Source: Acidobacteriota bacterium | Lineage (GTDB): Bacteria; Acidobacteriota; Aminicenantia; UBA2199 | Length of the DNA stretch: 64,000 nucleotides | Reading direction: 5' to 3' | NCBI GenBank assembly: GCA_022711715.1 | Contig: JAKLEC010000001.1 | Coordinates: forward strand, 33,500-97,499 | Shown here: one piece after another, positions 6,619-60,990 of the stretch | Layout of the letters: each line of letters opens with the position of its first letter | Position numbering within the stretch: position 1 is the first letter of the stretch | Made by a program: the position numbers and the translations under genes | The notes under the pieces: model-generated | Told to the model about the DNA's origin: nothing | The model's input: the letters and a program-made list of their open reading frames with translations, nothing else | Database searches by the model: none

Positions 6619-7338
6619 CTATTTTTTTTTGATAGTGCTTAAAACCTTATCCTTATCGATTTTTTTGGTGCAGAAGAACCAGTCGTGGCAGGTGACGCCC
6701 GCCTCCTTGCCCTCCATGCGCTCCTTGGCCACGCCGCAGGAGCCGGCGGTGGGCACGATGACGTCGTCGCCCGGGCGCCAGTCGGCCGGGGTGGCCACGC
6801 CGAAGGAGTCCGCCGTCTGCAGCGCCTGCAGCGCGCGCAGCAGCTCATCGAAGTTGCGGCCCATGCTCAGCGGGTAGTAGATGATGGTGCGGATGACGCC
6901 CTTGGGGTCGATGAAGAAGACGGCGCGCACGGCCTTGGTCGAGCTCTCGCCCGGCTGCATCATGCCGTATTTGTGAGCCACTTCCATGGTGATGTCCTCG
7001 ATCAGCGGGAACTTCACCTCGACGTTCTTCATCCCCTTGTAGTCGATCTTCTCCTTGATGATTCGCAGCCAGGCGATGTGGCTATACAGGCCGTCGACCG
7101 ACAGGCCGACCAGCTGGCAGTTCAGTTCGGCGAACTGGTTCTCCAGGGTGGCGAAGGTCATGAACTCCGAGGTGCACACCGGGGTGAAGTCGGCCGGGTG
7201 GCTGAACAGGATGATCCACTTGCCGGCGTACTGCTCGGGAAAGTTGATCTCGCCCTGGGTGGTGACGGCCTTGAACGAAGGAGCCTTGTCGCCGATGCGC
7301 GGCATCACGCCGCTTTGTGTTTCTTTGTTTGTTTCCAT
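6619..7338 (-). CDS. 1-Cys peroxiredoxin (Prx6/AhpC-TSA family), copy A
   Basis: FTPVCTSE peroxidatic Cys motif. ~88% nt identical over ~700 bp to 26423-27133. Start could alternatively be Met12 (MPRIGD). Confidence 0.85.
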   Translation of the reverse strand: METNKETQSGVMPRIGDKAPSFKAVTTQGEINFPEQYAGKWIILFSHPADFTPVCTSEFMTFATLENQFAELNCQLVGLSVDGLYSHIAWLRIIKEKIDYKGMKNVEVKFPLIEDITMEVAHKYGMMQPGESSTKAVRAVFFIDPKGVIRTIIYYPLSMGRNFDELLRALQALQTADSFGVATPADWRPGDDVIVPTAGSCGVAKERMEGKEAGVTCHDWFFCTKKIDKDKVLSTIKKK

Positions 7339-10584: not shown

Positions 10585-10820
10585 CCCAGGGAAGGCAGAG
10601 GGAGGAGAGAGGGAAGAATGAGGGAAGTGAGAGTGGGAAAAGCCATGTCATGAATTATTCCCACTTTGTCTTCCCCTTGTCTTTCCCTCTGCATTTCCCT
10701 CTCTCTTCCCTGGAGCCTGGAACTTCACATTTCAGCCTGCCATACGCCGTCAGCAGAACGCCTTGCGCCAAGGTCTTTCGGCTTCCCGTACGCCGTATGC
10801 CGTCCACCGTACGCCATCTT
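10585..10820. repeat. GA-rich/CT-rich long inverted-repeat module plus CCGTACGCCGTATGCCG module
   Basis: GGGAAGTGAGAGTGGGAA ... TTCCCACTTTGTCTTCCCC hairpin. Related copies at 36130-36240, 36510-36640, 38885-38935, 40375-40440. Tail shares CGTACGCCGTATGCCG with 23265-23290 and 40500-40850. Confidence 0.7.
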
Positions 10821-12479: not shown

Positions 12480-12830
12480 TGGCTCATATTATAGTATAAA
12501 TCTGACATATAGCCAAATCTTGCAGGGGATATCCGAGCAATCGTGACGCGTGACGCGTAACGCGTGACGAGTAAACGCACAACCAGCTATCGTGATTCGT
12601 GATTCGTGATTCGGAACAGCATAGTTCGGCCATGCTGTTGCTAACACAAACACTAACACCAACACGTAGCGCCCGGCAATTACCTTCATGCTGACACTGA
12701 CACTGTCACTGACACTAATTTTTATTGAATGCCGTACGCCGAGGTCCGCGTCCTGTCTCTTGTCACGCGTCACGCGTTACGCGTCACGAAGATCGTGCAA
12801 CTATGATCGACACCCGGCCGTCTTATATGG
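12480..12830. repeat. Composite intergenic repeat cluster: (TGACGCG)n, (ATTCGTG)n, (AACACW)n, (CTGACAC)n modules
   Basis: Same module types recur at 14845-15060, 21395-21545, 23330-23430, 30489-30520, 41135-41230, 46940-47030, 60400-60500, in both orientations. Confidence 0.8.
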
Positions 12831-14844: not shown

Positions 14845-15060
14845 CCAACAAGTCCTCCGTGACGCGTAACGCGTGACGCGTGACGCGTGAAGGCACATAG
14901 AGAGCAATAAAGAGTCGTTCCCATGGCATTCGCCATTCATCCGGAGGGAATCCCGGCAGGGGTTGGCTTTCTTTTGCGAGAATGCTTGCCACTTTGCATT
15001 TTCTCGTCACGCGTCACGCGTTACGCGTCACGATAGTCCGTTTCTTTGACACTGTCTTCC
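14845..15060. repeat. Composite intergenic repeat cluster ((TGACGCG)n in both orientations)
   Basis: CGTGACGCGTAACGCGTGACGCGTGACGCGTG at 14855 and the reverse-complement copy at 15003. Confidence 0.75.
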
Positions 15061-19442: not shown

Positions 19443-21205
19443 TGCGGCGCATCTCCGGCAAGGCGGTCTCCCCCGGCATCGCCATGGGGCGCGCCGTGCT
19501 GCACAACGTCACCCGCCAGGAGATCCTGGCCGAGCCCATCCCCCCGCGGGCGGTGGAGCGCGAGACCTGGCGCCTGGAGAACGCCGTCAAGAAGTCGCGC
19601 GCCCAGCTCAAGAAGATCCACCTCGGGCTGCAGAAGGTCATGGGCAAGGACGCCGCCTTCATCATCGAGGCCCAGCAGATGCTGCTCACCGACAGCCAGC
19701 TGCTCAACGAGATCAAGGGGGCGATCTCCGGCAAGCTGGTGAAGGCCGAGTGGGCCATCCGCCTGGTCGAGCGCCGCTACCAGGAGCTTTTCCGCTCCAT
19801 CCCCGACCTCTCCTTCAAGTCCAAGAGCAACGACGTCTCCGACGTGCTCAACCGCCTGATCGCCAACCTGCGCAAGGCCCCAGCGACGAAGCCGGCCGCC
19901 GGCGCCGCGCCCGGCGCCGCCCCCGGGCAGTACGTGCTGGTGGCCGACGACATCAGCCCGTCCGAGGCGGCCACGCTGATGAGCAGCCACCGCCTGCTGG
20001 GCCTGGTGCTGAACAAGGGCGGCGAGACCTCGCACACGGCCATCCTGGCCCGCACGCTCGGCATCCCCGCCATCCTGGACACGGGGAACGCCACCGAGCT
20101 CATCGCCGACGGCGACACCGTGGCCCTGGACTCGGTCGCCGGCGAGGTCATCGTCCAGCCCACTCCCGACGCCGCCCTGGAGATCGGGCGCAAGATCGAA
20201 CAGTTCGGCCAGTACCGCGAGCAGCTGAAGGCCCTCAGCCAGCTGCCGGAGCTGACCCGCGACCGCCGCCCCTTCCACCTCTACGCCAACATCGAGCTGC
20301 CCTTCGAGAGCGAAGTGGTGCAGTCGTTCGGCGCCAAGGGCATCGGCCTGTTCCGCACCGAGTTCCTCTACCTCGACTCCAAGATGAGCATCTCCGAGGA
20401 GGAGCAGTGCCTCATCTACAAGAAGATCGCCCAGAACGTCTACCCGCACCCGCTGGTCATCCGCACCTATGACCTCGGCCGCGACAAATCGGACCCGGCG
20501 CGGCCGCGGCGCGAGGACAACCCCTCGCTGGGCCTGATGGCCGTGCGCCTGTTCCTCAAGGAGCGCGAGCCCTTCAAGGTGCAGATCAAGGCCGTGCTGC
20601 GCGCCAATGCCAGCGGCAACATCCGCATCCTCTTTCCCATGGTCACCGAGATCGAGGAGGTGCGCGCCATCCGCGAGATCATGGCCGAGGCCCGGCGCGA
20701 ATTGCAGCGCACCGGCTCGCTGCCCAAGAAGGACGTCAAGGTGGGCATCATGCTGGAGATCCCCGCCGCCGTGCGCCTGATCCGCCACCTGGGCGACGAC
20801 GTCGACTTCTACTCGGTGGGCAGCAACGACCTGATCCAGTACCTGCTGGCCGTCGACCGCAACAACGCCGACGTCGCCCACCTCTACAGCCCCTTCCACC
20901 CGGCCTTCATCCACGTCCTGAAGGAGATCCGCCGGGAGGTGGACCGCGCCGGCAAGGAGGTGACCGTCTGCGGCGAGATGGCCGGCCAGCGCCTGCCGGC
21001 GCTGATGCTGCTGGGGCTGGGCTTCACCGGCTTCTCGATGAACGCGCTGGCGATCGCCGAGATCAAGCGCGTCTTCACCCGCGTCGACCTCGCCCGCCTG
21101 CGGCGCATCGTCTCCCGGCTGGACCGCTTCGGCTCGCGCTCCGAGATCGAGGAGCACCTCAGGACGGAGATCGACAGGGCGTATCCAGGGCTGTTGCAGG
21201 GCTGA
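19442..21205 (+). CDS. ptsI: Phosphoenolpyruvate-protein phosphotransferase (Enzyme I)
   Basis: GGETSHTAILAR phospho-His motif. PEP-utilising TIM barrel with CGEMAG. Confidence 0.95.
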   Translation: MRRISGKAVSPGIAMGRAVLHNVTRQEILAEPIPPRAVERETWRLENAVKKSRAQLKKIHLGLQKVMGKDAAFIIEAQQMLLTDSQLLNEIKGAISGKLVKAEWAIRLVERRYQELFRSIPDLSFKSKSNDVSDVLNRLIANLRKAPATKPAAGAAPGAAPGQYVLVADDISPSEAATLMSSHRLLGLVLNKGGETSHTAILARTLGIPAILDTGNATELIADGDTVALDSVAGEVIVQPTPDAALEIGRKIEQFGQYREQLKALSQLPELTRDRRPFHLYANIELPFESEVVQSFGAKGIGLFRTEFLYLDSKMSISEEEQCLIYKKIAQNVYPHPLVIRTYDLGRDKSDPARPRREDNPSLGLMAVRLFLKEREPFKVQIKAVLRANASGNIRILFPMVTEIEEVRAIREIMAEARRELQRTGSLPKKDVKVGIMLEIPAAVRLIRHLGDDVDFYSVGSNDLIQYLLAVDRNNADVAHLYSPFHPAFIHVLKEIRREVDRAGKEVTVCGEMAGQRLPALMLLGLGFTGFSMNALAIAEIKRVFTRVDLARLRRIVSRLDRFGSRSEIEEHLRTEIDRAYPGLLQG

Positions 21206-21209
21206 CGAA

Positions 21210-21560
21210 ACTCGGCGGACGACTAGGACAATCGCTTCCAGATGCTATAAGGTTCGACGTCCGAGGTTCGACGCTGCCGGCCCCGTCAGGGGCGGCGTCC
21301 CCGAGGAGCGATAGCTCCGAGTGGGATAAGACGTAACGAAGGCCAATTCGCTTGAGTGCTTAAGATTTCTAGTTAGTGGCTGATCGTTCTTGCTGACACT
21401 TTCACTGACACTGACACTTAGTCTTTGCTGTTGCTAACACAAACACGAACACGAACACGTAGCGCCAGGCAATCCCCTTCTTGCTGACACTGACACTGTC
21501 ACTGACACTGATATGTGGTCGCTGCTGTTTCTCGTCACTCGTCACTTGTCACTTGTTACT
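21210..21560. repeat. Composite repeat cluster: ~150-bp GC-rich hairpin element (family A, + orientation) followed by CTGACAC/AACACG/CACTYGT microsatellite modules
   Basis: 21245-21395 matches 46772-46915 at ~90%. Reverse-complement copies at 32850-32995 and 41250-41395. Confidence 0.85.
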
Positions 21561-23214: not shown

Positions 23215-23430
23215 GCACAGGCAGGGCGTGCTGGCAAATGAAACGAGCTTGCTGAACTTGGCGTACGGCATACGGCGCACGGCGTACGGCAGGAAACTTC
23301 CCGAGCTTTCGTGACGCTCCTGAAGATCCCCGATGGGGGGGGTAACGCGTGACGCGTGACGAGAAACCGCGACCAAATCGATCTATCGTGATTCGTAATT
23401 CGTGATTCGTGATTCGGAACAGCAATAGGT
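23215..23430. repeat. Composite repeat cluster (CGTACGCCGTATGCCG, (TGACGCG)n, (ATTCGTG)n modules)
   Basis: Module sharing with 10745-10810, 12541-12625, 40500-40850. Confidence 0.75.
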
Positions 23431-26422: not shown

Positions 26423-27133
26423 TCACTTCTTCTTGATCGTACTGAGCACCTTCTCCTTGTCGATCTTCTTGGTGCAGAAGAACCAGTCGTGGCAGGTGAC
26501 GCCGGCTTCCTTGCCGTCCATCCTATCCTTGGCCACGCCGCAGGAGCCGGCGGTGGGCACGATGACGTCGTCGCCCGGGCGCCAGTCGGCCGGGGTGGCC
26601 ACGCCGAAGGCGTCGGCGGTCTGCAGCGCCTGCAGCACGCGCAGCAGCTCGTCAAAGTTGCGGCCCATGCTCAGCGGGTAGTAGATGATGGTGCGGATGA
26701 TCCCCTTGGGATCGATGAAGAAGACGGCGCGCACGGCCTTGGTCGAGCTCTCGCCCGGCTGCATCATGCCGTACGCCTTGGCCACGTTCATGGTGATGTC
26801 CTCGATCAGCGGGAACTTCACCTCGACGTTCTTCATCCCCTTGTACTCGATCTTGTCCTTGATGGTGCGCAGCCAGGCGATGTGGCTGTACAGGCCGTCG
26901 ACCGAAAGGCCGACCAGCTGGCAGTTCAGCTCGGTGAACTTGGCCTCCATGGAGGCGAAGGTCATGAACTCCGAGGTGCACACCGGGGTGAAGTCGGCCG
27001 GGTGGCTGAACAGGATGACCCATTTCCCCGCGTACTGCTCGGGAAAGTTGATCTCGCCCTGAGTGGTGACGGCCTTGAACGACGGGGCCTTGTCGCCGAT
27101 GCGGGGCATGCTGACGGTTGCGTTCTGTTCCAT
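26423..27133 (-). CDS. 1-Cys peroxiredoxin (Prx6/AhpC-TSA family), copy B
   Basis: Start MEQNATVSMPRIGD (ATG 27133). FTPVCTSE motif. Paralog of 6619-7338. 5 bp downstream of the Fur-family gene. Confidence 0.85.
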   Translation of the reverse strand: MEQNATVSMPRIGDKAPSFKAVTTQGEINFPEQYAGKWVILFSHPADFTPVCTSEFMTFASMEAKFTELNCQLVGLSVDGLYSHIAWLRTIKDKIEYKGMKNVEVKFPLIEDITMNVAKAYGMMQPGESSTKAVRAVFFIDPKGIIRTIIYYPLSMGRNFDELLRVLQALQTADAFGVATPADWRPGDDVIVPTAGSCGVAKDRMDGKEAGVTCHDWFFCTKKIDKEKVLSTIKKK

Positions 27134-30488: not shown

Positions 30489-31140
30489 AGTGTTAGTGTT
30501 AGTGTTTGTGTTCGCAACGGCAAACGAACGAACTAAGCAGTATTGACAACTCATTGCCGTCCGAAATAAATCGTTTTTTATAGGAAATCAGTACTGCAAA
30601 TGGTTTTGGGGCTACCTCATACGGTTTTTATGGCTAGGTCGGCTGCTTGTAAGACTAAAATTCCAAGCACCAAGCAGCAAATTTCAAATAAATTCCAAGT
30701 TCCATCAAAGCCAGAAGCAAGTGTCAGTGTGAGTGTCAGTGTCAGCAAATCCAAACGGAAATGATGCTAAATTCTCGCTGTCACTGGCACTGTCACAGTG
30801 CTTTGTTTTGTTCATTTGGACATTGGTGTTTGGTGCTGATTTGGAATTTGGTGCTTGGAAATTGGTGCGTAAGTCCTCCCAGTTTCTAAAAGTTATTTTG
30901 GACAGATCTGTTGACAACTCTGTCCTGATCGAGTTCTCCATTATTCAGAATCCTGGCTTTCCTAACACGAACACTAACACGAACACAAACACAAAAGATT
31001 TGAGGTTCTGCGAGCAAGGGCGCCGTTCTTGCCGGGGCCGGGCGGGAGGCCCGGCTATATCTTTGGGTTTATTCGTCAAATTCTACCTTCAGGACTATTG
31101 TTTCATCCGCTTTTCAATTTTATAAGAAAATAACAAGCCT
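30489..31140. repeat. Composite intergenic repeat cluster (GTGTTAG, family-B element, TGTCAGTG, TGGAATTTGGTGCTTGG, AACACGAACAC modules)
   Basis: 30580-30680 (CTGCAAATGGTTTTGGGGCTACC...TAAGACTAAAATTCCAAGCACCAAG) recurs reverse-complemented at 39365-39465 and direct at 39170-39200. Confidence 0.8.
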
Positions 31141-32480: not shown

Positions 32481-33020
32481 CCGGAACAGGCTATCGCGAC
32501 ACGCGACAGGTAACAGCGATGGACGGATCCGTCGCGATTCGCATTTCGTGACGAAATCGGCAGACGGTTTACGGGGTACGGTTTACGGGAAAGCCATTCG
32601 GAGCTAACGCTCCTCGGGGACGCCGCCCCTGGCGGGGCCGGCGGCGTCGAACCTTGCTGCATCCGAAAAGTGTCAGTGACAGTGTCCGTGTCAGCAAGAA
32701 GGGAAAAGGGGTAGAGAGATAGAGTGGTAGAGGGGGAAAGCAAGAAACAGCCCGGGAGATTTCTTTGCATGGCCGCCACTTTTTCTCTTTCCCACTTTAC
32801 CTCTCTACCACTTTACCTCTCTAGCACTGAGCGTCCTGGCACAGCGAGCAAGAACGATCAGCCCCTAACTAGAAATCCTGAGCACCCAAGCGAATTGGCC
32901 TTCGTTACGTCGAATCCCACTCGGAGCTAACGCTCCTCGGGGACGCCGCCCCTGGCGGGGCCGGCGGCGTCGAACCTCGAACGTCGAACCTTAAAGCATC
33001 TTTAGTATTTCCTGATAGCG
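32481..33020. repeat. Composite repeat cluster with two reverse-orientation copies of the family-A hairpin element
   Basis: 32595-32655 (half element) and 32850-32995 (full). Also contains GTCAGTGACAGTG and GA-rich modules. Confidence 0.85.
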
Positions 33021-33542
33021 CTAAGGTTTCCTGTAGAAATAGACCTCGAAGCTCTCTTCGCTCTCCTTGACCAGCCAGTGCTCGAGCCCCAGGCTGGCGC
33101 CCTTGTCGATCAGCGGCGCCGGCAGGAAGGGGGCGCTCAGCTTATAGATGGTCCCCGGCGCCAGGGCGGCCAGGTCGGCCATCGCCTGGTTGACCGGCTG
33201 CTCGCCGGCGGCCAGCAGCGGCCGGGCGTCCAGCTCCTTCGCCACGCGAGCCGCGTCGAACCAGCCCGGGCGCTCCGTGCGGTACGCCGAGCCGGCTCCG
33301 CCGGCATAGAGGTCCTGGCCGGCCTCACGGCGCAGGCGGTTGACCAGCTCGTCCACCGCCACGCTGCCGACGGCCGCCGCCTGCTGCAGCGTGGCCACCC
33401 GGGCCACGGTCCGGCGCAGCACCGGGTTCTGCAGCTTGCGGAAGGCCGGGACCATCGCCACCAGCACCGCCTCCAGCTGCGGGTAGGCCTCGAGCAGCTG
33501 CAGCACCTTCGTCTTGGGGGTGATGACGGGCTTTTCGTCCAC
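33021..33542 (-). CDS. DUF1858 + DUF2249 domain protein
   Basis: N-terminal ITPKTKVLQLLEAYPQLEAVL...TVARVATLQQAAAV (DUF1858). Typical partner of DUF438 proteins. Confidence 0.65.
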   Translation of the reverse strand: MDEKPVITPKTKVLQLLEAYPQLEAVLVAMVPAFRKLQNPVLRRTVARVATLQQAAAVGSVAVDELVNRLRREAGQDLYAGGAGSAYRTERPGWFDAARVAKELDARPLLAAGEQPVNQAMADLAALAPGTIYKLSAPFLPAPLIDKGASLGLEHWLVKESEESFEVYFYRKP

Positions 33543-36079: not shown

Positions 36080-36700
36080 CGCACTGGGGTTCCACGTACC
36101 ACGTACCATGTTCCATGTTGAAGAGATTTCGGAAATCATCGGACGGCAAGGGAGAAGCTCAGGGAAGACAGAGGGAAGAATGAGGAAAGAGAGAGGGAAG
36201 AGAGAGTGGGAAAAGCCCTTTCTATGTGCTTGTGTCAGTGTTTGTGTTAGCGAAGGCAATCGGGCGAAACTAAAAAAAATGAAAGAGAATAAAAGCCTGC
36301 GCCTGGCGCAGTGACAAGCAGGATACCATGCGCAAGACAACCCCAAGCAAAGAACGCCGACAAGACAAACGGAGACCAGACCGCCGCGCCCAGGAGCGCA
36401 AAACAAATGGCCCCGCGCCGGGAGCCGTGCTTCTCTTCCCATTCAGCACCCTGCTGCTGGGTCCGCTGCTGGCCGGCGTCGAGCGGAAGCATCCTTCAGC
36501 TCGTCGAGCTCAGGGAAGATAGAGGGAAGAGAGAGAGAAGAGAAAGGGAAGAGAAGTGGGAAAAGTCCTTCCGAAAGTTCTTTCTCACTCTGTCTTCCCT
36601 CTGCCTTCCCTCTGTATTCCCTTTCTCTTCCCTGCAGTATCTTAGAGCTTGCGCTCCGGCGAGATTTTCCGCCCTGGCCGCTATTCATATAGTATAGGAA
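36080..36700. repeat. Composite repeat cluster with two GA/CT-rich inverted-repeat modules
   Basis: 36130-36240 and 36510-36640 related to 10585-10720. Also TGTCAGTGTTTGTGTTAG module. Confidence 0.8.
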
Positions 36701-40359: not shown

Positions 40360-40860
40360 AGCAAAAAGGACGATCTCAGGGAAGAGAGAGGGAAAACAAA
40401 GGGAAAGGCAGAGGGAAGCCGGAGTGGGAAAGGATTCCTGACAGAGCCTTTCCCGCATGGACCGATCTGTTGCTTTTACGAACCACTAATCACTTCGCCC
40501 GTGCCCTACGCCGTCCACCGCAGGGCCTTTTCTTCCTTTTTCCTTTTTCCTTTTGCCCTTTGCCTTTCGCCTTCCTCTTCCCCTCCGCCGTACGCCGTCC
40601 GCCGTCAGCCGTATGCCTTATGCTATGCTGGGGTTTTCTCTTACTTTTGCCTTTTGCCCTTTGCCCTTTGCCTTTCGCCTTCCTCTCCCCTCCGCCGTAC
40701 GCCGCATGCCGTCAGCCGTATGCCTTATGCCATGCTTGGGTTTTCTCTTACTTTTGCCTTTTGCCTTTTGCCCTTTGCCTTTCGCCTTCCTCTTCCCCTC
40801 AGCCGTACGCCGTATGCCGTATGCCGTCAGCCGAGTCCTGATATTCATAAATAGTTCCTA
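40360..40860. repeat. Tandem array, ~3 copies of a ~108-bp unit (CCGTACGCCG...CTTTTGCCTTTTGCCCTTTGCCTTTCGCCTTCCTCTTCCCCTC), preceded by GA-rich half-module
   Basis: Units at ~40586-40690 and 40691-40799 with partial copies on each side. No unique spacers, so not CRISPR. Confidence 0.85.
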
Positions 40861-41109: not shown

Positions 41110-41400
41110 GGGCGGCGACGGTACTCGCTGTCCACAGTGTCAGTGACAGTGACAGTGTCAGCAAGAAACATCTCCGAACGCTACGCGTTAGTGTTTGTGT
41201 TTGTGTTAGCAACAGCATGAACCAATACTACGTGACAGTGCCAGTGCCAGCAAGAACGATCAGCACCTGACTAGAAATTCTAAGCACCCGAGCGAATTGG
41301 CCTTCGTTACGTCGAACCCCGCTCGGAGCTAGCGCTCCTCGGGGACGCCGCCCCTGGCGGGGCCGGCAGCGTCAAACGTCGGACGTCGAACCTTGTCGCC
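41110..41400. repeat. Composite repeat cluster with reverse-orientation family-A hairpin element
   Basis: 41250-41395 is the reverse complement of 21245-21395 (~90%). Also CAGTGACAGTGACAGTG and GTGTTTGTGTTAG modules. Confidence 0.85.
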
Positions 41401-42427
41401 CTTCTGGAATTCCTCTTTTCTTTATTCTTTGCAGTGAGAAAAGCCCTGCCGCCAGGAACAACAAGCCGAAGGCGACATAGGCGTCCGCGGCAAGGAACAG
41501 CACCAGGTGCGCGTAGACCCACATGCCCAGGATGTACGCCCACCACCAGCCGCGGAAGCGGATGACGCCGGCGACGATCAGCAGCACGGCGGTGAACCCG
41601 ACCAGCGCCGCCTGGGCGTCGCGGGTGGCCAGCAGCACCAGCAGCAGGTAAGCTGCCGCGAAGACTACCCACGGCCAGCGCCGGCGCCGGGCCAGGATCC
41701 TCCGCAGCGCCAGGTCGCAGGCGGCGACAAACCCCAGTCCGGCGATGAAGTTCAACCACCAGGGCGCGGCCGGCCGCCCCTCGGCCAGGCGCTTGACGTT
41801 GCGCATCATCTGCCGCTCCATGACGAAGTGGATGGTGTCGAAGGTCAGCGCCTGGCGAAGCAAGTCCCAGCGGCCCATGGGCGGGACGCGGCCGCGCAGC
41901 AGCAGCCGGGTGCGGCCGTCCGCCAGGGGGATGAAGTTGAAGCTGCCCCAGCCGCGCAGGACGAAATGTTTCGGTTTATCCAGCCGGGACACCGGCGGCG
42001 CCAGCCGGGGGGAGGGCTCCTGCCGGCGGAACAGTCCCAGCGGGTAGTCCTGGGGCGTCAGCAGCACCGGCATGCCCAGGCGCAGCTCCTGCCATTCCGG
42101 GCGAATGGACTCCGTATTGCGAATGTTGGCCAGGAAAAGGTTCTCCAGCCAGTGATAGCTATAGAAGCCGCCGCGGTCCTGGCCGATCTGCGCCTGCCAG
42201 GCCCAGGCCTGCTCGGGCGGTGCGTTGACGTCCAGGGCGCGGGTGGTCTGGTAGGCGTAGCCGGGAAGCTCCTCGTCGCCGGGGAAGACGGCGGCGCGCT
42301 CCTGCGGCGTCGAGCCCCAGTGCAGCAGCCAGGGTCGGCCCCAGGCGAAATAAAAGGAGATGACAGCGGCGAACACCAGCAAGAAAACCAGGGTCGACAG
42401 GGCCCGGCGTTTTTTTTCCATGCGCAT
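41372..42427 (-). CDS. Membrane protein with N-terminal SRPBCC-like region, hypothetical
   Basis: Start MRMEKKRR. N-terminal TM, soluble region, then 4-5 C-terminal TM helices. Family uncertain. Confidence 0.45.
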   Translation of the reverse strand: MRMEKKRRALSTLVFLLVFAAVISFYFAWGRPWLLHWGSTPQERAAVFPGDEELPGYAYQTTRALDVNAPPEQAWAWQAQIGQDRGGFYSYHWLENLFLANIRNTESIRPEWQELRLGMPVLLTPQDYPLGLFRRQEPSPRLAPPVSRLDKPKHFVLRGWGSFNFIPLADGRTRLLLRGRVPPMGRWDLLRQALTFDTIHFVMERQMMRNVKRLAEGRPAAPWWLNFIAGLGFVAACDLALRRILARRRRWPWVVFAAAYLLLVLLATRDAQAALVGFTAVLLIVAGVIRFRGWWWAYILGMWVYAHLVLFLAADAYVAFGLLFLAAGLFSLQRIKKRGIPEGRQGSTSDV

Positions 42428-42505
42428 CGCTCCCCGTGGATTCGCTCCATGATACAACGGCGGGTGAGATTTCTCCAGCCGGAGTCGTATTCAGAAAGCG
42501 GTTTC

Positions 42506-43216
42506 ATGGAGGCCATGATGAAGAAAAGTCATTTGCTTGCCGTGTGGATGATTGCCGCTGTCTGGCCCGCCTGGGCGCAGGAGAAGACGGTGCCCAAGCC
42601 GAGCGGGACCATCCTCGCCCCGCCGCGGGTGTTCATCACCGTCGTCCGGCCCGAGCACTACGAGCATGTCCTGCGCGGCGCCCAGCAGACGGTGCAGTGG
42701 ACGCGCACCGCCGACATCGGCCGCCCGACCATCGAGATCTGGAAGGGCGAGGCCGTGGTGCAGAGCTATCCGCTGGTCACCGCCGAGGGGCCGATCTCCC
42801 GCCGCTACCGCTGGACCTGGAACGTGCCGGCGACCACGGCGACCGGCGGCGATTACCGCGTCAAGGTGATCTCCGAGAACGGCCGCGCCTCCGACTTCAG
42901 CGAGTACTTCTCGGTTGTGGCCAGCAAGATCGAGATCAGCATGCCGCGCTACGGCTCGCACTACCGCCGGGGCTCGCTCATGACCATCCATTTCACCTGC
43001 TACAACGTGACCCAGAACCTGAGGGTCTACCCGCTGAACTTCTCCAACTATCCCATCGCCACCGATATTTCCCCCAGCACCACCTACGTCGACTGGCCCA
43101 CCGCCGGCACCAGCCCCGACGGCGAGGTGTGGATGCCCTTGAGCGGCCGCATCGTGGTCTCGACCATGGACGGCTCGGTCTACGCCGAGAGCCACGTGTT
43201 CACCATCGACGATTGA
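42506..43216 (+). CDS. Secreted hypothetical protein
   Basis: MEAMMKKSHLLAVWMIAAVWPAWAQE signal peptide. Rest of the 569-aa track ORF upstream is an antisense shadow. Confidence 0.5.
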   Translation: MEAMMKKSHLLAVWMIAAVWPAWAQEKTVPKPSGTILAPPRVFITVVRPEHYEHVLRGAQQTVQWTRTADIGRPTIEIWKGEAVVQSYPLVTAEGPISRRYRWTWNVPATTATGGDYRVKVISENGRASDFSEYFSVVASKIEISMPRYGSHYRRGSLMTIHFTCYNVTQNLRVYPLNFSNYPIATDISPSTTYVDWPTAGTSPDGEVWMPLSGRIVVSTMDGSVYAESHVFTIDD

Positions 43217-46749: not shown

Positions 46750-47045
46750 ACAGGCAATAAGCTTGCAGATGCGATAAGGTTCGACGTTCGAGGTTCGACG
46801 CTGCCGGCCCCGTCAGGGGCGGCGTCCCCGAGGAGCGTTAGCTCCGAGTGGGATTCGACGCAACGAAGGCAAGTTCGCTTGGGTGCTTAAGATTTCTAGT
46901 TTGTGGCTGGTCGTTATTCTAAAAAGGTTAGGATCATTTGAAGGCCTTCTCGAATCACGAATTACGAATTACGAATCACGATAGCTCAAATTCGTGCAGT
47001 TGCTGACACAAACACTAACACGATCACGCAGATCTTCTGTTCGCT
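46750..47045. repeat. Composite repeat cluster: family-A hairpin element (+ orientation) plus (ATTCGTR)n and AACAC modules
   Basis: 46772-46915 matches 21245-21395. Confidence 0.85.
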
Positions 47046-48867: not shown

Positions 48868-49009
48868 GTGCTGCAGACGCGCCGGCCTCGGGTCCGCAAG
48901 GGGTTCACGGGTCCTGCATCGGGTGATCGGTTGGGGAGCGGGAACGGGCCTTTCCGTCAGGGCCATTATACACCAGGCGGCGGGGAATGTAAATCATCGC
49001 CTCCGGCAT

Positions 49010-50237
49010 GGGGACGGAGGATTAAAATTTGACTTTTTCCCTGCGAGGTAAAAAGTCAATATTTAAAGTTCCGTCCCCCAGCAGGCAGGAAGGCAGCCTG
49101 CTTGCCTGCGCTGTATGGCCACAAAACTGATGCGGAGGACCAGCGATACAATGCAGCACACAGGGATGGCTAGAGGATTTTCCCATACCATACAGATTGA
49201 TGGACGAAATTCTAATTTTTGACCTTTATATTTCCTCTCTTCTTTGCATTGCGGTACAGATGCCCCAGAGACTGGTGCTTCAAGTCAAAGAAGAAGGGGA
49301 TTTCGCCTATATCCGAATATTTCAGCCCGGCCAGGTCATGCAGCCAGACCAATAGCTCGCCCCGCAGTCTTTTGCCTGCGTGGGATGAGCGGTCGATCTG
49401 CTTCAGGCTGACCTGGTGCTTCCTTTCGAACTCATGGACCACCTTTTCAGCGGGCTCAAAGAATCGGTCCTCCGCGCGCTTCCTCTGTGCATCGGCGGGC
49501 GTTTTCCTGCGGTCGAACTTTTCCGCCGCCTTATCCGGGAAATCATCGCTCCCGATCACAGTCCCGAACCGAGTCCGAATGATCGGCAGCTCCGCATCGG
49601 CCGGATCGCGCAAGACGGCAGCCAGACCCTGGCGCGACTTGAAGAGGCCTTCAATGAGGTCAGTCGCCAGCCACTCGCTCCTTCTCCTGGAAAAATACGC
49701 GCCAGCGCTCGACCAGGGATAATCCGTCGATACTGCAGCCAGGCCCGCCCTGACCGGATTCAGGAGGACGTAACGGATTGCCAGTGTCAGGTATCCTTCA
49801 TCCTGGATCAGGGAGGAGTGAAAGCGGTTTTGGAACACGTATCCCTGGCTCGCCGTCTTCCTGCGATAATACATGCCGTACTGGCCGTTCAACTGCCGGA
49901 GAAAATGGGAAAGCCGGCCTGAGCGATTCTCGACCACCAGGTGATAGTGGTTGTCTATCAGGCAGAAGGCGAAAATGCGGATGCCGTTCAGTTTGGAATT
50001 CCTGGCCAGAAGTTCAAGAAAATGGCGTTTATCATTGTCACCCGCAAGGATCTTTTCCCCGTTGATCCCGCGGCTGGTGACATGGTGAAACGCTCCAGGG
50101 TAAGTCAGCCTGGGAAGCCGCATGGTTCGATCTTAGTTGAGGAGCGAAACGAATTCAATGGGGACGGAGGATTAATTTTTGTGTTTTTCGTGATTCGATA
50201 AAAAAGTCAAAAATTAAAGTTCCGTCCCCAAAAGGAG
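49010..50237. mobile_element. REP-associated tyrosine transposase (RAYT) unit flanked by two AT-rich ~75-nt palindromic hairpin elements in direct orientation (REPtron-like)
   Basis: GGGGACGGAGGATTAAAATTTGACTTTTT...AAAAAGTCAATATTTAAAGTTCCGTCCCC at 49010-49082. GGGGACGGAGGATTAATTTTT...AAAAAGTCAAAAATTAAAGTTCCGTCCCC at 50157-50237. Confidence 0.7.
49212..50123 (-). CDS. IS200-like Y1 (HUH) transposase, REP-associated (RAYT), with C-terminal DnaA-C-like HTH extension
   Basis: NHYHLVV HuH motif. Catalytic Tyr region YVLLNPVRAGL. C-terminal LHDLAGLKYSDIGEI...LGHLYRN resembles DnaA domain IV. Confidence 0.75.
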   Translation of the reverse strand: MRLPRLTYPGAFHHVTSRGINGEKILAGDNDKRHFLELLARNSKLNGIRIFAFCLIDNHYHLVVENRSGRLSHFLRQLNGQYGMYYRRKTASQGYVFQNRFHSSLIQDEGYLTLAIRYVLLNPVRAGLAAVSTDYPWSSAGAYFSRRRSEWLATDLIEGLFKSRQGLAAVLRDPADAELPIIRTRFGTVIGSDDFPDKAAEKFDRRKTPADAQRKRAEDRFFEPAEKVVHEFERKHQVSLKQIDRSSHAGKRLRGELLVWLHDLAGLKYSDIGEIPFFFDLKHQSLGHLYRNAKKRGNIKVKN

Positions 50238-50321
50238 CGGGGATTGTAAATCGCGGCGATTCCCCATAGAATAGGGCCTTGACCGATGCGGCCGGAACCA
50301 CCGGGCCCGGAGGAGCACACC

Positions 50322-58800: not shown

Positions 58801-58990
58801 GCCAGCTCGCTGCCGGTCAGAACGAACAGGGCTTCAAGGTTCGGCGTTCGAAGTTCGACGTTCGACGTAACGAAGGCCAATTCGCTCGGATGCTTTTTAC
58901 GATCTCCAAGCAGGTTCTGATCTCTGTTTCAGACAATGGGTGTCTAGTAAAGAAAAGCGATTGCTTTTGCATTTTTGCAATCCGTCCCCA
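58801..58990. repeat. Partial family-A element (arm without central hairpin)
   Basis: AAGGTTCGGCGTTCGAAGTTCGACGTTCGACGTAACGAAGGCCAATTCGCTCGGATGC. Confidence 0.7.
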
Positions 58991-60354: not shown

Positions 60355-60990
60355 GTCAACACTGAAGAATCGCCCAATAATACAAGAAACTCAACGAACT
60401 CTGCGTGTTAGTGTTCGTGTTCGTGTTAGCAACAGCATGAGCCGACCTATTGCCGTTCTGAATCACGAATTACGAATCACGACAGATTCTTTTTTCCTTG
60501 TCAGTGCCAGCAAGAACGCTCAGCCCCTGACTAGAAATCTTGAGCACCCAAGCGAATTGGCTCTTGTTACGTCGAACCTCGAACGTTGAACCTTACAGTT
60601 CTTATAGGTTTTTCCCCGCCCTATGCCGCCAAGTGCCTTTCAACGTGGCACGTGGTACATGGTACGTGGCACCTTGAAAGTCCGGCGTACTTTTAGTTGC
60701 TGAATAGCATGGAGTACTACTTCTCTGCCTCTGCGCCCTGTGCCGCCGAGTGCCCTTCAACGTGGCACGTGGTACATGGGATGCCACTCGGGAGGAACCC
60801 TCGGGGACGCCGCCCCTGTCGGGGTCGGCAGCGTGGTACCTAGATGGACCGTCGTACTTCTAGTTGCTGAATAGCATGGAGTACTACTTCTCCGCCCCTG
60901 CGCCCTACACCAGGCGCCGAGTTCTATCGCTGTTCCTCGTCACTTGGCACTCGTCACTCAGCCTTTGAGCTCCTGGAAGGACCCCCCAGA
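60355..60990. repeat. Composite repeat cluster: GTGTTAG/ATTCGTR modules, partial reverse family-A element, isolated family-A central hairpin, and ~170-bp tandem duplication
   Basis: 60670-60790 duplicated at 60845-60920 (GTACTTTTAGTTGCTGAATAGCATGGAGTACTACTTCTC...). 60795-60840 carries the GGGGACGCCGCCCCTGTCGGGGTCGGCAGCG hairpin. Confidence 0.8.

Follow-up and report, generated by a model that had tools for sequence, protein, structure and literature searches.

A three-module intergenic repeat with a two-hairpin candidate mobile unit in an Aminicenantes-type genome

Family A, a repeat present in a 64 kb stretch of an Acidobacteriota contig (JAKLEC010000001.1, positions 33,500 to 97,499; the whole stretch is called the window), is a real intergenic repeat of ~145 bases, built as a mosaic of three modules and not as one hairpin element. 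These modules are T5 (AAGGTTCGACGTYCGAGGTTCGACG), a heptamer array of the type (GTTCGAC)n; H, a 53-nt unit with two imperfect GC hairpins and the layout C-TGCCGGCCCCGYCAGGGGCGGCG-T-CCCCGAGGAGCGNNAGCTCCGAGTGGG-A; and T3, a 65-nt tail (TTCGACGTAACGAAGGCCAATTCGCTTGGGTGCTTAAGATTTCTAGTYAGGGGCTGATCGTTCTT). T5 and T3 make up the carrier T. The special feature of H is that it forms a discrete unit with exact junctions, specific in orientation and target, and that it occurs without target duplication. The T+H composite has multiplied within this genome, and its presence varies between related genomes. With modest confidence, family A is best understood as a nested, non-autonomous mosaic mobile repeat comparable to the repetitive extragenic palindromic (REP) sequences and bacterial interspersed mosaic elements (BIMEs), H being the mobile unit. 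A description of family A, or of intergenic repeats in Aminicenantes, was not found in the searchable literature.

A blastn search of the window with positions 21200-21420 returned four full copies and four partial ones. The full copies are 86-93% identical, with E values of 6e-57 to 6e-63; apart from the query itself, they were matched at 32847-33001(-) (92.9%), 46761-46918(+) (91.8%) and 41232-41409(-) (86.5%). In copy 1, on the plus strand, T5 occupies 21249-21273 (AAGGTTCGACGTCCGAGGTTCGACG, the GTTCGAC heptamer array) and starts 44 nt past the stop of ptsI (21205), H follows at 21274-21326 as the two-hairpin insert of 53 nt (CTGCCGGCCCCGTCAGGGGCGGCG T CCCCGAGGAGCGATAGCTCCGAGTGGGA), and T3 at 21327-21391 (TAAGACGTAACGAAGGCCAATTCGCTTGAGTGCTTAAGATTTCTAGTTAGTGGCTGATCGTTCTT) passes into (CTGACA)n arrays. 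Copy 2 (46776-46918, +) consists of T5 at 46776-46800, H at 46801-46853 and T3 at 46854-46918; copy 3 (32850-32992, -) of T5 at 32992-32968, H at 32967-32915 and T3 at 32914-32850; copy 4 (41252-41394, -) of T5 at 41394-41370, H at 41369-41317 and T3 at 41316-41252. The 13-mer core GACGCCGCCCCTG occurs six times exactly in the window and, with up to two mismatches, 26 times, the expectation being 7.8; none of 100 shuffles reached 26. A covariance model of H recovered six copies of this module in the window, at 72-102 bits. The original prediction, made from the same DNA, had proposed a multi-copy repeat, and in this it was right, as it was in its consensus and its GC hairpin, which the alignment of the four full copies reproduces.

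The partial matches, located at 32594-32654(-), 60503-60598(-), 60799-60841(-) and 58836-58895(+), exist as had been stated, but they are separate modules, H or T, and not truncated copies of one element. Separate-module profiles (nhmmer) together with direct reading revealed that H+T3, T3 alone, H alone and tandems of H all occur. A solitary H without T3 lies at 32592-32644(-), with GCAGCAAGGTTCGACG before it and a (CCGTAAA)n array after it, and a degenerate H of 50 nt (60782-60831, -) interrupts the first of two tandem units of another repeat, family B, following GGTACCACG. The carrier without H is found at 60512-60594(-), where the T5 array is joined straight to T3, and at 58836-58895(+), where the 3' half is truncated or diverged and the start lies 36 nt past the stop (58800) of a co-oriented plus-strand gene. 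Outside the window, T without H was seen at L012 11779-11875, L012 1088-1173 and L014 2155-2061 (L numbers denote collected loci). H without T occurs inside the arms of family B, beside the (CCGTAAA)n array of the window mentioned above and, in L003 and L005, in rows of two and three units placed head to tail. The outer edges of the T+H composite grade into other modules, namely short leaders and then arrays of period 6-7.

Family B itself is a long inverted repeat of 150-200 nt with arms of (GTWCCAY)n arrays (DNA-fold z -7.7) and the layout ACTAGTCAGCGGCTTWCAGTACGACGGTCCTTCAAGGTTCCACG(TWCCAYG)n...GTTGAAGGCAC, a loop and the reverse complement. It is present in the window at 60612-60900(-) and 36088-36119(+) and at many loci, such as L014 5080-5270, L016 ~6306 and L021 ~1830. 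H is carried by either arm of family B, and the junction after CCACG also takes duplications of spacer plus leader.

The evidence for H as a unit of its own comes from filled and empty sites. When 13 T elements with and without H are aligned, one clean gap of 53 columns separates the two groups. The tandem units of family B in the window, 60728-60900 and 60612-60730 on the minus strand, differ by a clean gap of 50 nt directly after CCACG, so that the unit at 60612-60730 represents the empty site; both units have four heptamers, and therefore no target-site duplication (TSD) accompanied H. Two pairs of orthologous loci, L001 and L021 (flanks 94% identical) as well as L011 and L026 (flanks 90.5% identical), carry H in one member only and at the same junction. 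In the latter pair the family B arm lacking H is a plain empty site whose heptamer count equals that of the filled arm, and in L001 the junction is filled by a different insert of ~66 nt, consisting of a spacer plus a second leader. A check for TSDs had been proposed earlier; none is seen at the composite, and filled and empty arrays have equal heptamer counts.

The target can be defined precisely. The 10 nt to the left of H, (A/G)GGTTC(C/G)ACG, are near-invariant in 30 distinct copies from at least three unrelated wider contexts; H always has the same orientation, directly 3' of GGTTC(C/G)ACG in heptamer arrays, and its boundaries are exact (C-TGCC...GTGGG-A/T/G). In ~306 kb of non-redundant sequence H occupies 23 of 74 target motifs, a proportion that is biased, the loci having been retrieved with a pattern derived from H. 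The same subfamilies of H, recognised by the hairpin-2 stem (e.g. GGGG-TTCA-CCCC or GGGGC-ACTA-GCCCC), recur in different contexts, and H thus moves between contexts instead of diverging with them. It can stack in tandem, as expected if the target survives insertion. In L008 5148-5204(-), a truncated H, comprising hairpin 1 plus TCCCCGAGGAG, runs into unrelated sequence after the variant target GGTTCAAAG; this is a degenerate or interrupted copy.

Hairpin 1 of H, GCCG-G-CCCC/GGGG-CGGC, and hairpin 2, CCCC-GA-GGAGC/GCTCC-GA-G-T-GGG, both lie 1-2 nt from the termini of the unit. On the H alignment (A3), 96% of cells are paired in the two-hairpin structure, compared with 44-54% in slid controls. 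Compensatory changes were found at four pairs, including C-G to U-A and A-U to G-C, and all one-sided changes yield G-U on the strand as given; at pair 14-37, for instance, 25 copies have U-G, 4 have C-G and 1 has U-A. H thus keeps two hairpins under selection, and the structure-conservation check suggested beforehand came out positive, both hairpins retaining their pairing through compensatory changes. The folding strand is the one marked by G-U/G-T pairs. With RNA parameters, 26 of 30 copies fold more stably on the sense strand than on its complement (p = 1e-5), and with DNA parameters 28 of 30 do; a fold of RNA and a fold of single-stranded DNA are equally compatible with the data. H with short flanks gave z = -2.6, and T without H is unstructured (z +0.9 to -0.1). 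This does away with the idea of a single hairpin element of ~150 bp, since only the central 53 nt are structured. By inspection, a K-turn reading of hairpin 2, considered for its tandem G-A pairs and bulged U, was set aside for lack of a 3-nt bulge 5' of the G-A pairs, and readings of H as attC-like site, ribozyme or retron were dropped, the defining motifs not being seen.

On the favoured reading, a carrier T of ~90 nt, opening with a (GTTCGAC)3-4 array, would have received the 53-nt mini-element H, and the T+H composite would then have been copied to several gene 3' ends of the genome. Insertion of H may take place on folded single-stranded DNA, its hairpins being recognised by an enzyme of the Y1/HUH type whose gene lies elsewhere in the genome; such a route is suggested by the missing TSD, the preserved left target, the single orientation and the hairpins at the ends. 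The copies would persist mainly just 3' of co-oriented genes, where GC hairpins are presumably tolerated or useful as mRNA 3'-end structures. The REPs of E. coli are an analogue for hairpins in this role.

Several points weigh against such a nested mobile repeat. No enzyme was identified for H, and in the ~400 kb of collected loci no autonomous parent of the type hairpin 1 ... gene ... hairpin 2 was found; a search of these ~400 kb for solitary left or right halves of H returned GC-rich coding noise only. The two hairpins of H are unlike each other and abut the ends of the element, while those of the IS608 type are similar and stand at a distance from the cleavage sites (PMC3201880). Of the six H copies in the window, two lie on the plus and four on the minus strand under a uniformly negative GC skew, at odds with the strong replication-strand bias of IS608 and ISDra2. 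Furthermore, H is located between direct heptamer repeats, such that empty sites could come from deletion by slippage, and its spread could occur by gene conversion between arrays. Finally, the H-derived retrieval pattern biases proportions among the loci, and the gene calls were made by a heuristic on G+C at the third codon position (GC3), gene strands being assigned by codon-position G+C.

For part of the spread, gene conversion or slippage between heptamer arrays has to be reckoned with as an alternative. Taken as the whole explanation, with H and T spread and lost by homologous recombination, gene conversion and replication slippage and with no dedicated enzyme, it is considered unlikely. 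In its favour, heptamer repeats (TTCSACG ... TWCSAYG) flank every H and offer microhomology on both sides, the flanks are mosaic (L013 and L021_8334 have the left flank and H in common and differ in their right flanks), strains with 99.9% identity differ by swaps of whole spacers, and the window contains dozens of period-7 arrays. However, the same exact boundaries and the same orientation recur in arrays of different heptamers (GTTCGAC, GTWCCAY, and beside CCGTAAA) and beside single heptamers, and selection on hairpin pairing is not explained by recombination alone. A bolder proposal, voiced here as a speculation that is rather doubtful, holds that H is the substrate of a novel hairpin-guided, site-specific insertion system targeting one phase of heptamer arrays, which together with the hypervariable cassettes described below would make a lineage-wide modular system building and exchanging gene 3'-end or terminator structures.

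The position of the copies was compared with that of genes called by the GC3 heuristic. All four full copies and the partial copy at 58836 are situated 27-44 nt past, or overlap, the stop of a co-oriented gene (5/5). Copy 2, in an intergenic region between convergent genes, starts 27 nt past the stop of a lactate permease gene (46749), and copy 3 begins 28 nt past that of gene 33021-33542(-), which has the same orientation. Of all T copies, 11 share the direction of the adjoining gene and 4 are opposed to it. The spacers that bear H are convergent in 10 of 21 cases, and in the co-directional ones H is sense in four and antisense in four. In copy 4, T5 contains the last ~8 codons (RQGSTSDV) and the TGA stop of a co-oriented gene for a membrane-protein-like product, 41372-~42440(-); T5 supplies these via a copy-specific change of C to T, from GGTTCGACG to CGTTTGACG (window 41372-41403, -). 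This calls for caution in annotation, as the repeat supplies the stop and the final codons of a gene. The first ~1 kb of a long plus-strand open reading frame (41507-43216) is an artefact, codon-position G+C marking the minus strand as coding; the true plus-strand gene there, Kre9_KNH-like and with a signal peptide, begins near 42540.

This arrangement invites the view that the element is primarily a functional RNA, that is, a 3'-untranslated-region (3'-UTR) module, carried on the transcript of the gene upstream, that acts as hairpin terminator or stabiliser or gives rise to a small RNA derived from the 3'-UTR, and that its repetition stems from selection and not from mobility. The view is rather improbable. 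It draws on the co-oriented stop 27-44 nt away or overlapped in all five cases and on the 11:4 ratio over all T, on G-U pairs and an energy asymmetry that favour the sense strand together with compensatory changes in both hairpins, and on the spacers, which contain no canonical intrinsic terminator and whose counterparts in relatives have strong hairpins of other kinds in that place (z -6.5 and -6.7). Against it stand the lack of any Rfam family at gathering or relaxed thresholds, the absence of the element from the orthologous spacers of close relatives, the antisense position of H to both neighbours in 4 of 8 co-directional spacers, and the occurrence of H in tandem (x2, x3) and nested in other repeats. 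Moreover, T alone is unstructured, and neither hairpin is followed by a U-tract.

Family A is not conserved by position, as the ptsI-acyltransferase spacer illustrates. In relatives at 95, 85 and 83% PtsI identity, this spacer contains neither T nor H; different heptamer-array repeats are present instead, and in L032 (85%) and L033 (83%) these pair into one extended hairpin whose arms consist of different heptamers (z -6.7 and -6.5). The ptsI spacer of the window has H as its sole stable structure, and scans of two host spacers for sigma-70 promoters and intrinsic terminators found none. Intergenic heptamer-array hairpin cassettes are hypervariable between strains. At 12528-12795 of the window, a segment of ~270 nt is replaced in L029 (1605-1839) by an unrelated, repeat-rich sequence of 235 nt between flanks that are 99.9% identical; the window's version of the cassette is closed by a stem of ~30 bp from (CGTGACG)n/(CGTCACG)n arrays (z -4.2). 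Besides the window, GCA_035912455.1, GCA_016294905.1 and the JGI contig Ga0116241_10000178 contain the ptsI locus. Two public assemblies of the same strain break off inside copy 1, the contig end of L029 corresponding to window position 21260 and that of L030 to 21278, as is expected when a multi-copy repeat is encountered.

The closest named PtsI homologues of the window come from metagenome-assembled genomes (MAGs) of Acidobacteriota or Candidatus Aminicenantes, an uncultured group at the level of a phylum that is common in anaerobic digesters and sludge. A scan with one genome per species found the core in only one Aminicenantes MAG; a scan of metagenomes added 21 further core loci, mostly from assemblies of sludge or digester type. 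Apart from the orthologous pairs, these loci have repeats in common with the window and no coding flanks.

If H is indeed the mobile unit of a nested repeat, a 53-nt element with an exactly definable target and clear filled and empty sites, and without an obvious enzyme, would provide a tractable case for how REP-like repeats that lack a flanking transposase, for example the CGTC REPs, move. The intergenic DNA of Aminicenantes would then consist of modular hairpin repeats with fast turnover, which break assemblies and probably supply transcripts with 3'-end structures.

Other identities had been considered for family A. The suggestion of a miniature inverted-repeat transposable element (MITE) is contradicted by the ends: the first 20 nt of the composite and the reverse complement of its last 20 agree at 6 of 20 positions, so no terminal inverted repeats (TIRs) are present, alifold proposes only eight weak and invariant terminal pairs, strings common to the flanks are 4-5-mers that do not abut the element ends, and the outer boundaries grade into other modules. 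It is highly improbable that family A represents a classical MITE, or part of a known insertion sequence, with mobilisation in trans via TIRs, even though its size of ~145 bp, its copy number and its place between genes would suit a MITE. Besides the missing TIRs and TSDs, no coding remnant was seen, no relative of family A turned up in a blastn search of plasmid and phage records or in a scan of viral contigs with a pattern, and a parent insertion sequence with the same ends was found neither in the ~400 kb of collected loci nor in plasmid, phage and viral collections. A likeness to the T-arm of tRNA, noted for the GGTTCGA segments, dissolves in a similar manner, GGTTCGA being the unit of the heptamer tandem array. 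ARAGORN found no tRNA or tmRNA, Rfam at gathering thresholds gave no match over the whole window, and at relaxed thresholds the region 21200-21560 produced only matches at chance level (E 4.9-9.8).

An enzyme had been proposed to act on family A, namely a REP-associated tyrosine transposase (RAYT) encoded at 49212-50123. The gene (minus strand, 303 aa) does encode a RAYT-like Y1 (HUH) protein with the motifs HYHLV and YVLLNP (HUH as HYH; Y---NP) of class 2 Y1, but of the TIRYT type (tyrosine transposases flanked by long inverted repeats), and its NCBIfam score remains under the cut-off: REP_Tyr_transpos was matched with 69.5 bits (E 2.8e-19; cut-off 80) and Pfam Y1_Tnp with 31 bits. A sequence search of the PDB gave no match, and at Pfam E values up to 10 neither a DnaA-like C-terminal domain nor a C-terminal helix-turn-helix was detected in the protein. 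The gene, judged to lie outside family A, is flanked by two copies of a palindrome of ~70 nt, at 49010-49078(+) and, on the other side, at 50160-50229(+) (GGGGACGGAGGATTAA...TTAAAGTTCCGTCCCC), which is unrelated to family A, AT-rich and terminates in GGGGACGG, matching 7 of 8 positions of the GGGGWSAS consensus. Outside each palindrome stands the motif GCGGGGAWTGTAAATC (48975-49000 and 50237-50265), and the palindrome was found neither elsewhere in the window nor in the 26 loci checked. TIRYTs, which form TIRtrons with long flanking inverted repeats bearing GGGGWSAS motifs and include a distinct group from Acidobacteria, are not associated with REPs in the literature (PMC3733652), and no REPs were found for Y1 subclass 2.1 (PMC6006769). 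The class 2 core, the long C-terminal extension and the flanking inverted repeats of 49212-50123 agree with TIRYT and subclass 2.1.

RAYTs are defined by flanking cognate REPs (PMC3116915, PMC6006769). Neither H nor T is present within 2 kb of the Y1 gene, the nearest copy of family A being 2.3 kb away, and tblastn of the Y1 protein against all collected loci detected no homologue near any H. As the adjacency of RAYT-REP pairs is missing, and the gene has palindromes of its own, family A is not regarded as its substrate. That family A or its H core serves the protein after all is improbable. The motifs and the REP_Tyr_transpos match would suit such a role, as would the single locus of the gene in all 11 contigs carrying it, between typA/bipA and a GH38 gene, which recalls domesticated RAYTs; in addition, the complement of GCGTCCCCGAGG, where conservation of H is highest, contains GGGGACG, identical to the first 7 nt of the palindromes, a match of seven nucleotides that was noticed post hoc and may be due to chance. 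The unrelated palindromes and the distance of 2.3 kb argue against it, as do the length of 303 aa, the C-terminal extension and the GGGGACGG termini, all of which fit TIRYT or subclass 2.1, and the NCBIfam score below cut-off.

The window, with a G+C content of 58-74% and a GC skew that is negative throughout, is rich in repeats of other kinds. Most of its intergenic regions contain short-period tandem arrays, ~35-40 rows being of period 7 and some of period 6 and 11, and the arrays often form inverted complementary pairs; examples are found at 12542-12788, 14858-15032, 21393-21560, 23260-23416, 30489-30992, 40531-40833, 46951-46981 and 60404-60672. At 40531-40827 a unit of 107 nt is repeated 2.8 times (91% matches) and is itself built of (CTTTTGC)n and (GCCGTAT)n arrays. 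Period-11 arrays of AGGGAAGAGAG occur at 10588-10711, 36161-36212, 36512-36633 and 40378-40418, with complementary CTCTGTCTTCC/TTGTCTTCCCC arrays nearby that make up another family of inverted-pair repeats. Two segments of ~683 bp, 6623-7305 and ~26430-27110, are ~92% identical and correspond to minus-strand paralogues of peroxiredoxin (AhpC-TSA).

Among known systems, BOX (boxA-boxB(n)-boxC) and the enterobacterial repetitive intergenic consensus (ERIC) are built of modules, lie between genes and are co-transcribed with their neighbours; the number of a central module varies, or an internal insert is optional. Family A is like them in this build; there is no sequence relation, and the modules of BOX are not known to be inserted independently at a defined target in other repeats. 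Cyanobacterial small dispersed repeats (SDRs) reportedly measure 21-27 nt, bear hairpins and are known from filled and empty paralogues. SDRs and the short tandemly repeated repetitive (STRR) sequences share with H the character of tiny hairpin-forming mobile repeats nested in other repeats in genomes rich in heptamer arrays; SDRs differ in their 21-27 nt as against 53 nt with two hairpins, in phylum and in sequence. The tandem arrays of the window likewise resemble cyanobacterial STRR repeats, here in an Aminicenantes-type genome.

The ends of the IS200/IS605 family, including IS608, and the palindrome-associated transposable elements (PATEs) have neither TIR nor TSD, insert in one orientation 3' of a preserved short sequence, carry a hairpin near each end and use one active strand (PMC3201880, PMC3597680). 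H likewise shows no TIR or TSD, insertion 3' of a fixed target, one orientation, a hairpin near each end and one folding strand; similar subterminal hairpins with distant guide and cleavage sites (PMC3201880) are not found in H, whose hairpins are dissimilar and flush with the termini, leaving no room for guide sequences. No tnpA/tnpB partner was found for H, and the window shows no replication-strand bias.

A close parallel is provided by REP/BIME and by REPINs with their RAYTs in E. coli and Pseudomonas (PMC3116915, PMC6006769), which are likewise short extragenic multi-copy imperfect palindromes with bulged bases. They form mosaics with other motifs, are overrepresented at the 3' ends of genes and in convergent spacers, differ from strain to strain and presumably move as folded single strands. 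H (six copies in 64 kb, intergenic or at gene ends) differs in having two different hairpins in direct order over 53 nt, REP being a single palindrome of 20-40 nt or an inverted doublet, and in inserting at one fixed heptamer site. An unpaired GTAG/CGTC head is absent; GTAG does not occur, and CGTC falls within the paired positions 36-39 of A3. There is no cognate RAYT flanked by the same repeat, as in a REPtron. In a REPIN an inverted pair of REPs forms one long hairpin, whereas the tandems of H run head-to-tail with the hairpins in direct order. For the CGTC REPs no dedicated transposase is known, and some REP families lie regularly inside specific longer target palindromes (Di Nocera et al. 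2013, PMC3733652). H nested in family B hairpins is reminiscent of this class of GTAG- and CGTC-tagged REPs (PMC3733652), and the tetranucleotide CGTC precedes hairpin 2; in H, however, it is base-paired across the hairpin junction instead of forming an unpaired head, and the stems of H are without the A/T first positions, the length of 8-9 bp and the CCA tail. Family A is thus not a MITE, a GTAG or CGTC REP, a REPIN or a set of canonical IS200/IS605 ends. The designation as REP-like, by contrast, has held: family A is an extragenic multi-copy repeat with a strand-specific, conserved hairpin core and a behaviour of the kind known for REP/BIME-type selfish DNA.

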